This document shows positions 1,998 to 3,962 of a stretch of 64,000 bases of DNA, in pieces; the first letter of the stretch is position 1; each line of letters starts with the position of its first letter. A program made the translations under genes and the position numbers. The notes beneath the pieces are model-generated. The model ran no database searches. It worked only from the letters and a program-made list of their open reading frames with translations, and was not told where the DNA came from. The stretch lies in assembly GCF_055900595.2 (NCBI RefSeq), contig NZ_CM148325.1, one strand, 5' to 3'.

Positions 1998-3962
1998 GTG
2001 AGCATGGATATAAGCGATTTTTATCAGACATTTTTTGATGAAGCGGACGAACTGTTGGCTGACATGGAGCAGCATTTGCTGGTTTTGCAGCCGGAAGCGC
2101 CAGATGCCGAACAATTGAATGCCATCTTTCGGGCTGCCCACTCGATCAAAGGAGGGGCAGGAACTTTTGGCTTCAGCGTTTTGCAGGAAACCACGCATCT
2201 GATGGAAAACCTGCTCGATGAAGCCAGACGAGGTGAGATGCAACTCAACACCGACATTATCAATCTGTTTTTGGAAACGAAGGACATCATGCAAGAACAG
2301 CTCGACGCTTATAAACAGTCGCAAGAGCCGGATGCCGCCAGCTTCGATTATATCTGCCAGGCCTTGCGTCAACTGGCATTAGAAGCGAAAGGCGAAACGC
2401 CATCCGCAGTGACCCGATTAAGTGTGGTTGCCAAAAGTGAACCGCAAGATGAGCAGAGTCGCAGTCAGTCGCCGCGACGAATTATCCTTTCGCGCCTGAA
2501 GGCCGGGGAAGTCGACCTGCTGGAAGAAGAACTGGGACATCTGACAACGTTAACTGACGTGGTGAAAGGGGCGGATTCGCTCTCGGCAATATTACCGGGC
2601 GACATCGCCGAAGATGACATCACAGCGGTACTCTGTTTTGTGATTGAAGCCGATCAGATTACCTTTGAAACAGTAGAAGTCTCGCCAAAAATATCCACCC
2701 CACCAGTGCTTAAACTGGCAGCCGAACAAGCGCCAACCGGCCGCGTGGAGCGGGAAAAAACGACGCGCAGCAATGAATCCACCAGCATCCGTGTAGCGGT
2801 AGAAAAGGTTGATCAATTAATTAACCTCGTCGGCGAGCTGGTTATCACCCAGTCCATGCTTGCCCAGCGTTCCAGCGAACTGGACCCGGTTAATCATGGT
2901 GATTTGATAACCAGCATGGGGCAGTTACAACGTAACGCCCGTGATTTGCAGGAATCAGTGATGTCGATTCGCATGATGCCGATGGAATATGTTTTTAGTC
3001 GCTATCCCCGGCTGGTGCGTGATCTGGCGGGAAAACTCGGCAAGCAGGTAGAACTGACGCTGGTGGGCAGTTCTACTGAACTCGACAAAAGCCTGATAGA
3101 ACGCATTATCGACCCGCTGACCCACCTGGTACGCAATAGCCTCGATCACGGTATTGAACTGCCAGAAAAACGGCTCGCCGCAGGTAAAAACAGCGTCGGA
3201 AATTTAATTCTGTCTGCCGAACATCAGGGCGGCAACATTTGCATTGAAGTGACCGACGATGGGGCGGGGCTAAACCGTGAGCGAATTCTGGCAAAAGCGG
3301 CCTCGCAAGGTTTGACTGTCAGCGAAAACATGAGCGACGACGAAGTCGCGATGCTGATATTTGCACCTGGCTTCTCCACGGCAGAGCAGGTCACCGACGT
3401 CTCCGGGCGCGGCGTCGGCATGGACGTCGTTAAACGTAATATCCAGGAGATGGGCGGTCATGTCGAAATCCAGTCGAAGCAGGGTACTGGCACTACGATC
3501 CGCATTTTACTGCCGCTGACGCTGGCCATCCTCGACGGCATGTCCGTACGCGTTGCGGATGAAGTTTTCATTCTGCCGCTGAATGCTGTTATGGAATCAC
3601 TGCAACCCCGTGAAGCCGATCTCCATCCACTGGCCGGCGGCGAGCGGGTGCTGGAAGTGCGGGGTGAATATCTGCCCATCGTCGAACTGTGGAAAGTGTT
3701 CAACGTCGCGGGCGCGAAAACCGAAGCCACCCAGGGAATTGTGGTGATCTTACAAAGTGGCGGTCGCCGCTACGCCTTGCTGGTGGATCAATTAATTGGT
3801 CAACACCAGGTTGTGGTTAAAAACCTTGAAAGTAACTATCGCAAAGTCCCCGGCATTTCTGCTGCGACCATTCTTGGCGACGGCAGCGTGGCACTGATTG
3901 TTGATGTCTCCGCCTTGCAGGCGATAAACCGCGAACAACGTATGGCGAACACCGCCGCCTGA
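1998..3962 (+). CDS. cheA: Chemotaxis histidine kinase CheA (654 aa, long form; GTG start)
   Basis: ORF track 1944..3962 trimmed to in-frame GTG at 1998 giving [20 protein letters not shown]...; length then equals recalled CheA-L. Confidence 0.93.

Follow-up and report, generated by a model that had tools for sequence, protein, structure and literature searches.

The cheA gene considered here lies near one end of a 64,000-nucleotide stretch of DNA (the window; one strand of contig NZ_CM148325.1, NCBI RefSeq assembly GCF_055900595.2) and contains an in-frame internal ATG preceded by an SD-like AAGGA. The question raised by this locus is whether translation also begins at that ATG and, if it does, what in the DNA marks the site. 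We give a probability of about 0.96 to the explanation that two in-frame starts on one cheA mRNA yield the long form CheA-L and the short form CheA-S, the latter recruiting CheZ. The internal start of cheA has been known since 1980-1991, that is for more than 40 years, and is a textbook case; CheA-L and CheA-S are among the founding examples of bacterial nested genes, and recognising the internal start in a scan is correct annotation, no discovery. The internal ATG is called start(S) below, and the upstream GTG start(L).

Locus, coordinates and products

The first 15 kb of the window correspond to the motAB-cheAW-tar-tap-cheRBYZ-flhBAE region of E. coli. Positions 1900-4000 were found in 5378 of 5426 complete E. 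coli genomes and are 100% identical to several of them; for the cheA of the window strain, 100% matches lie in ATCC 8739-like genomes. In about 48 of the 5426 genomes the cheA region is unmatched, and two of the matches are plasmid-borne.

Pfam searches of CheA-L returned Hpt (P1), CheY-binding (P2), H-kinase_dim (P3), HATPase_c (P4) and CheW (P5), all five families above their gathering thresholds and in the P1-P5 order expected of a five-domain CheA. The phospho-accepting residue, His48, is present in 81/81 aligned Enterobacterales sequences. The SD-like sequence of start(L) overlaps the end of motB, with its GAGG at 1987-1990 followed by the motB stop codon TGA at 1991..1993. The coordinates of these and the other features discussed below are collected in Table 1.

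Table 1. Positions in the window of the two cheA starts, their products and associated features.
Feature	Coordinates	Strand	Basis
cheA, long form CheA-L	1998..3962	+	GTG start(L), 654 aa; RefSeq CDS of ATCC 8739 mapped onto the window
SD-like GAGGTGA of start(L)	1987..1993	+	Read from sequence; SD:anti-SD duplex -7.2 kcal/mol
Codon 48 CAC (His48), phosphorylation site, CheA-L only	2139..2141	+	Within the Hpt match, residues 8-100
Codons 84-100, lowest synonymous-codon diversity and AT-rich third positions	2247..2297	+	Putative internal translation-initiation region
SD-like AAGGA of start(S)	2280..2284	+	Sequence; duplex -5.4 kcal/mol
start(S) ATG, codon 98, CheA-S initiation codon	2289..2291	+	Sequence; Met98 in 81/81; literature
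CheA-S coding sequence, 557 aa	2289..3962	+	Translation and Pfam
CheA codons 123-126, Leu123 and Leu126, reported CheZ contacts	2364..2375	+	PMC7750401; both 81/81
cheZ, partner of CheA-S	10285..10929	+	Annotation
CheZ apical-loop W97/F98	10573..10578	+	Translation; CheA-S/CheZ module residues present

Counting from start(L), (2289-1998)/3+1 = 98, which places the ATG at 2289 in frame with cheA, and the translation around it reads ...ETKDIM98QEQ; both the frame and the codon number given in a preliminary description of this DNA were thereby confirmed. That description was also right about the AAGGA motif upstream of the ATG and one base off in its position, since 2279..2283 reads gaagg and the motif itself occupies 2280..2284, leaving a spacer of 4 nt (catc) before the ATG. 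In the 557-aa product the Hpt match is lost and the CheY-binding, dimerisation, HATPase_c and CheW-like domains are kept (Pfam). His48 lies upstream of the ATG at 2289 and is absent from CheA-S, so that the short form does lack the phosphorylation-site region, as had been proposed. The part of P1 that CheA-S retains is its end, which corresponds to the second half of helix D and helix E in the solved Salmonella P1 structure.

Published evidence for CheA-S and its link to CheZ

The use of AUG98, the loss of CheA-S in M98 mutants and the recruitment of CheZ are taken from earlier papers. According to these, cheA has two alternative start codons, the fragment CheA98-655 is CheAS, and an M98I substitution gives CheAL without CheAS (PMC2644175); CheAS is likewise described as an alternate translation product initiated at ATG-98 and eliminated by M98L (PMC7696710). 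The earlier identification of the ATG at 2289 with the known CheA-S start, and the statement that one gene encodes two proteins from nested starts, agree with this literature on two in-frame cheA starts, and cheA(L)/cheA(S) is given elsewhere as a standard example of nested isoforms (PMC12350097). CheAS originates at a start lying in frame, forms homodimers that are catalytically inactive and stimulates CheZ, and the ratio of long to short CheA shifts from 4:1 to 1:1 during growth (PMC1447658). The short form is without the first 97 residues, its Leu123 and Leu126 contact the apical loop of CheZ (PMC7750401), and it localises CheZ (PMC7750401, PMC1447658). In a study that also used a CheZ F98S mutant, M98L left CheZ no longer concentrated at the receptor array, and CheAS was not essential for chemotaxis in standard assays (PMC7696710). 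Because CheA-S is dispensable for chemotaxis, its selective value would be subtle.

N-terminal proteomics and ribosome profiling with initiation inhibitors had been proposed as checks on this start, and such tests were in effect already done decades ago through genetics and protein analysis. Smith and Parkinson reportedly observed in 1980 that promoter-proximal nonsense mutants still produce short CheA, and McNamara and Wolfe are said to have found co-expression of CheA-L and CheA-S in other Enterobacteriaceae in 1997. The flagellar regulon is presumably poorly expressed in the strains used for Ribo-RET. Among known internal starts a Ribo-RET preprint names infB, clpB and mrcB, with cheA going unmentioned, and a Salmonella proteoform paper has CheA in its discussion only, with none in the supplements examined.

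In our preferred explanation, initiation at GTG 1998 gives the full kinase CheA-L (654 aa), and independent initiation at AUG 2289 (codon 98) gives CheA-S (557 aa), with start(S) using the AAGGA at 2280-2284 and probably also an A/U-rich, weakly structured upstream tract (U5/A-rich, low GC3). Without residues 1-97 of the P1 phosphotransfer domain, His48 included, CheA-S cannot be phosphorylated, and by retaining P2-P5 it dimerises and joins receptor arrays through P3-P5. On this account the truncation of P1 uncovers the region of Leu123/Leu126 as a docking surface for the CheZ apical loop, and the CheZ phosphatase is thereby concentrated at the receptor cluster, as the papers describe. CheA-S in this way underlies the placement of CheZ (the CheY-P phosphatase) beside the kinase, which shapes the spatial signal profile.

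The SD-like motif as a marker of start(S)

The SD:anti-SD duplex energy was computed for each in-frame ATG, GTG and TTG codon of cheA. At -5.4 kcal/mol, Met98 ranks 7th among 49 such codons; the 13 annotated starts nearby have a median of -5.9 kcal/mol, and by this comparison start(S) is preceded by a ribosome-binding sequence. In the set of 13 genes that runs from motA to flhE, cheA included, 14 of 150 internal in-frame ATGs (9.3%) have a duplex energy at least as good as that of Met98, which amounts to a false-positive rate of about 9% per internal ATG in this region when an ATG plus SD motif is the sole guide. Within cheA itself, Met81 (2238-2240, gaggtgagATG) reaches -7.2 kcal/mol, equal to start(L) and better than start(S). 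Given this base rate and the better-scoring Met81, start(S) is not identifiable from the motif alone and was recognised via prior knowledge; as a marker of start(S), ATG plus SD motif is by itself no better than chance. The support for the site is the literature and the comparative data, with the motif excluded.

The strongest internal SD-like sequence between motA and flhE, ggggaggggATG (-10.4 kcal/mol), stands before the ATG at codon 21 of flhE (14410-14412). The SD of the annotated flhE start is weaker, at -4.8 kcal/mol.

Conservation of Met98 and of the tract upstream

The comparative set consisted of cheA and its flanks from 80 Enterobacterales species, with Escherichia and Xenorhabdus as the extremes of the range and protein identities of 62-96% (81 sequences with the window); DNA of Salmonella, Shigella, E. 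albertii and E. fergusonii was not included. Met98 is invariant in this set (81/81), a count that carries some ascertainment, since one of the six peptide patterns used for finding the loci (ETKDIMQE) spans Met98, and one that includes Photorhabdus and Xenorhabdus loci (EAKDIMQQ) found via other patterns. At the DNA level the patterns are degenerate and therefore put no bias on codon choice.

The AAGGA motif behaves differently from the codon that it precedes. Only 5 of the 81 sequences have AAG at K95, and the rest read GAA ACN AAA GAT ATT ATG, so that the duplex energy falls from -5.4 kcal/mol for the AAGGAC of E. coli to -3.3 kcal/mol for the common enterobacterial AAAGAT. The canonical AAGGA SD is thus nearly specific to E. 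coli, whereas Met98 and the A/U-rich upstream tract are shared order-wide, a modestly new point.

Constraint on synonymous sites was assessed as observed/expected synonymous-codon entropy, in which the 10-codon window 89-98 is the lowest in cheA (rank 1 of 645) and is approached only by codons 1-10. All sequences (81/81) encode F91 by TTT and E93 by GAA. Codons 90-97 have a GC3 of 0.39, the cheA mean being 0.61 (rank 11 of 647 8-codon windows, 81 Enterobacterales), and every 8-codon window with a lower GC3 falls at codons 4-19 or 641-648. As codons 4-19 follow start(L), codons 90-98 belong to start(S) and codons 641-648 precede cheW, the three AT-rich patches of cheA coincide with three translation-initiation regions. 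Where matching to a motif fails, synonymous-site constraint and the local GC3 dip do identify the true internal start, a point that is likewise new to a modest degree.

As an observation on the neighbouring gene, codons 641-648 (3918-3941) form the third-lowest GC3 window of cheA (0.30 versus the mean of 0.61 in the 81 Enterobacterales) and lie a short way upstream of where cheW begins (3983), which is consistent with an open initiation region for cheW.

Among E. coli genomes, 5343 of 5378 (99.3%) agree with the window at every one of the 81 nt of 2250-2330, compared with 3593 of 5378 (67%) for a control stretch around His48 (2100-2180) and 1959 of 5380 (36%) for one in the kinase domain (3300-3380), a contrast that is large but drawn against only these two control stretches.

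For an outgroup survey, 1.84 billion representative proteins were scanned in full, which yielded 150 CheA representatives clustered at 50% identity, 146 of them with an alignable P1. In these 146 distant proteins the residue aligned to position 98 is mostly Leu (92), followed by Val (20), Ile (14) and Met (9). Met98 therefore looks like a derived character of Enterobacterales, which may have arisen from Leu, Ile or Val at the base of the order. Because the position is mostly Leu, Val or Ile elsewhere, and because M98L and M98I kinases are functional, the retention of Met98 is probably owed to its use as a start codon and not to a need in folding.

The CheA of the nearest outgroup (P0001; MAG GCA_035281745.1, L083 3270-3295, 59% identity) was considered as a carrier of an internal start and rejected, its spacing being too short for an SD. 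It reads GAA ACC AAG GAC ATG CTG, with Met at 97, Leu at 98 and AAGGAC abutting the ATG; its Met has thus shifted by one codon, and one nt of spacing separates the SD from the ATG.

A further reading of these patterns, which we put forward tentatively and at somewhat less than even odds, is that the conserved initiation signal is an SD-poor A/U-rich element kept throughout the Enterobacterales by purifying selection on synonymous sites, which would have appeared together with Met98 at the base of the order, the SD having been added later in E. coli. The consensus of this candidate element is AAC CUG UUU UUG GAA ACN AAA GAU AUU AUG, and two synonymous substitutions in E. coli, AAA becoming AAG and GAT becoming GAC, would have strengthened it into a canonical SD. 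As a putative ribosome-loading element, the conserved tract may keep start(S) open for loading of the 30S subunit. If this is correct, cheA offers a natural test case for the birth and tuning of an internal start.

A functional hairpin at start(S) was also considered and rejected. In the MFE fold of 2229-2348, a 9-bp stem (CUGUUUUUG at 2265-2273 paired with CAAGAACAG at 2292-2300) carries the SD and the AUG in its loop. This region has no extra stability relative to shuffled sequences (z = 0.63), its local accessibility is unexceptional (23% of control positions are equally open by predicted unpaired probability), and the conserved synonymous choices of TTT over TTC and of TTG over CTG weaken the stem.

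Alternative origins and sites of initiation

The alternative that survives best concerns an additional start rather than a replacement for start(S), namely that in E. coli the ATG at 2238 (Met81, after GAGGTGAG) gives a third, slightly longer proteoform beside CheA-S. Its duplex energy speaks for it, as does the presence of Met81 in 77 of 81 Enterobacterales, but among the 14 sequences compared the SD-like GAGGTGAG occurs only in E. coli, the others having cgcggtgag and similar sequences at -3 kcal/mol. The synonymous constraint moreover peaks at codons 84-100 and not upstream of codon 81, and the CheA-S literature examined makes no mention of a third proteoform and describes M98 substitutions as removing the short form. 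We regard initiation at Met81 as improbable.

Met98 might instead be an in-frame Met that merely happens to follow an SD-like sequence, with no consequential initiation, and be conserved only for the structure of P1. The base rate of 14 in 150 for equally good internal ATG and SD sites, the rank of only 7th of 49 within cheA and the non-essential role of CheA-S in chemotaxis (PMC7696710) speak for such an accident, but the papers report initiation at ATG-98 and abolition of the short form by M98I or M98L (PMC2644175, PMC7696710). Nor is a Met structurally required at this position, to judge from the Leu, Val or Ile of distant CheA proteins and the function of M98L and M98I, yet it is found in 81/81 Enterobacterales, and the synonymous sites just upstream of it are the most constrained in cheA. 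Together these make a chance Met very unlikely.

Least credible of all is that short CheA results from proteolysis of CheA-L or from a shorter transcript off a promoter inside cheA, a generic alternative for any gel doublet with nothing specific in its favour, given that the short form is lost once codon 98 is replaced by Leu or Ile (PMC2644175, PMC7696710) and that a scan of 1900-2400 restricted to sigma-70-like promoters found none.

Other features of the window

Between ruvC and ruvA (30386-34221) the window carries about 3 kb of extra DNA compared with E. coli ATCC 8739. This segment contains an ORF of 505 aa at 30435-31952 in which a PBP_like_2 (phosphate-binding-protein-like) domain is recognised, a divergent minus-strand yebB/Peptidase_C92 gene at 32030-32602 (about 81% nucleotide identity), and two ORFs without a Pfam match at 32471-33520 and 33537-34127. 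Of 5426 complete E. coli genomes, only 8 have 80% or more of 30300-34300, the best identity being 98.0%. Identity to ATCC 8739 is 99.4% at positions 1-22773, about 96% at 22951-30385 and 97.1% beyond 34222, and the drop suggests that the DNA around cmoB-aspS-ruvC is mosaic or recombinant.

Comparison with known systems

Over the 81 nt of 2250-2330 the window is 100% identical to the laboratory strains NEB_Turbo and ER2683, K-12 derivatives and so of the background used in CheA-S experiments. The start(L)/start(S) pair described in E. coli K-12 (Smith & Parkinson 1980; Kofoid & Parkinson 1991; Sanatinia et al. 1995) is the same locus as that of the window: the gene, the frame, the ATG at codon 98 and the AAGGA are alike, with no difference of substance. 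For the other Enterobacteriaceae (McNamara & Wolfe 1997), Met98 is present in all 80 Enterobacterales loci fetched here, including those of Enterobacter cloacae and of Serratia species. Other Enterobacterales mostly have AAAGAT where E. coli has AAGGAC, which makes the E. coli SD the exception and the A/U-rich tract the shared signal.

Beyond cheA, the closest parallels are infB (IF2 isoforms), clpB, mrcB and Salmonella ssaQ, in which, as in cheA, an internal SD and start give an N-terminally truncated second protein, although the proteins themselves are unrelated to CheA. Unlike in these genes, the truncation in cheA removes the catalytic phospho-acceptor and creates a CheZ-binding surface.
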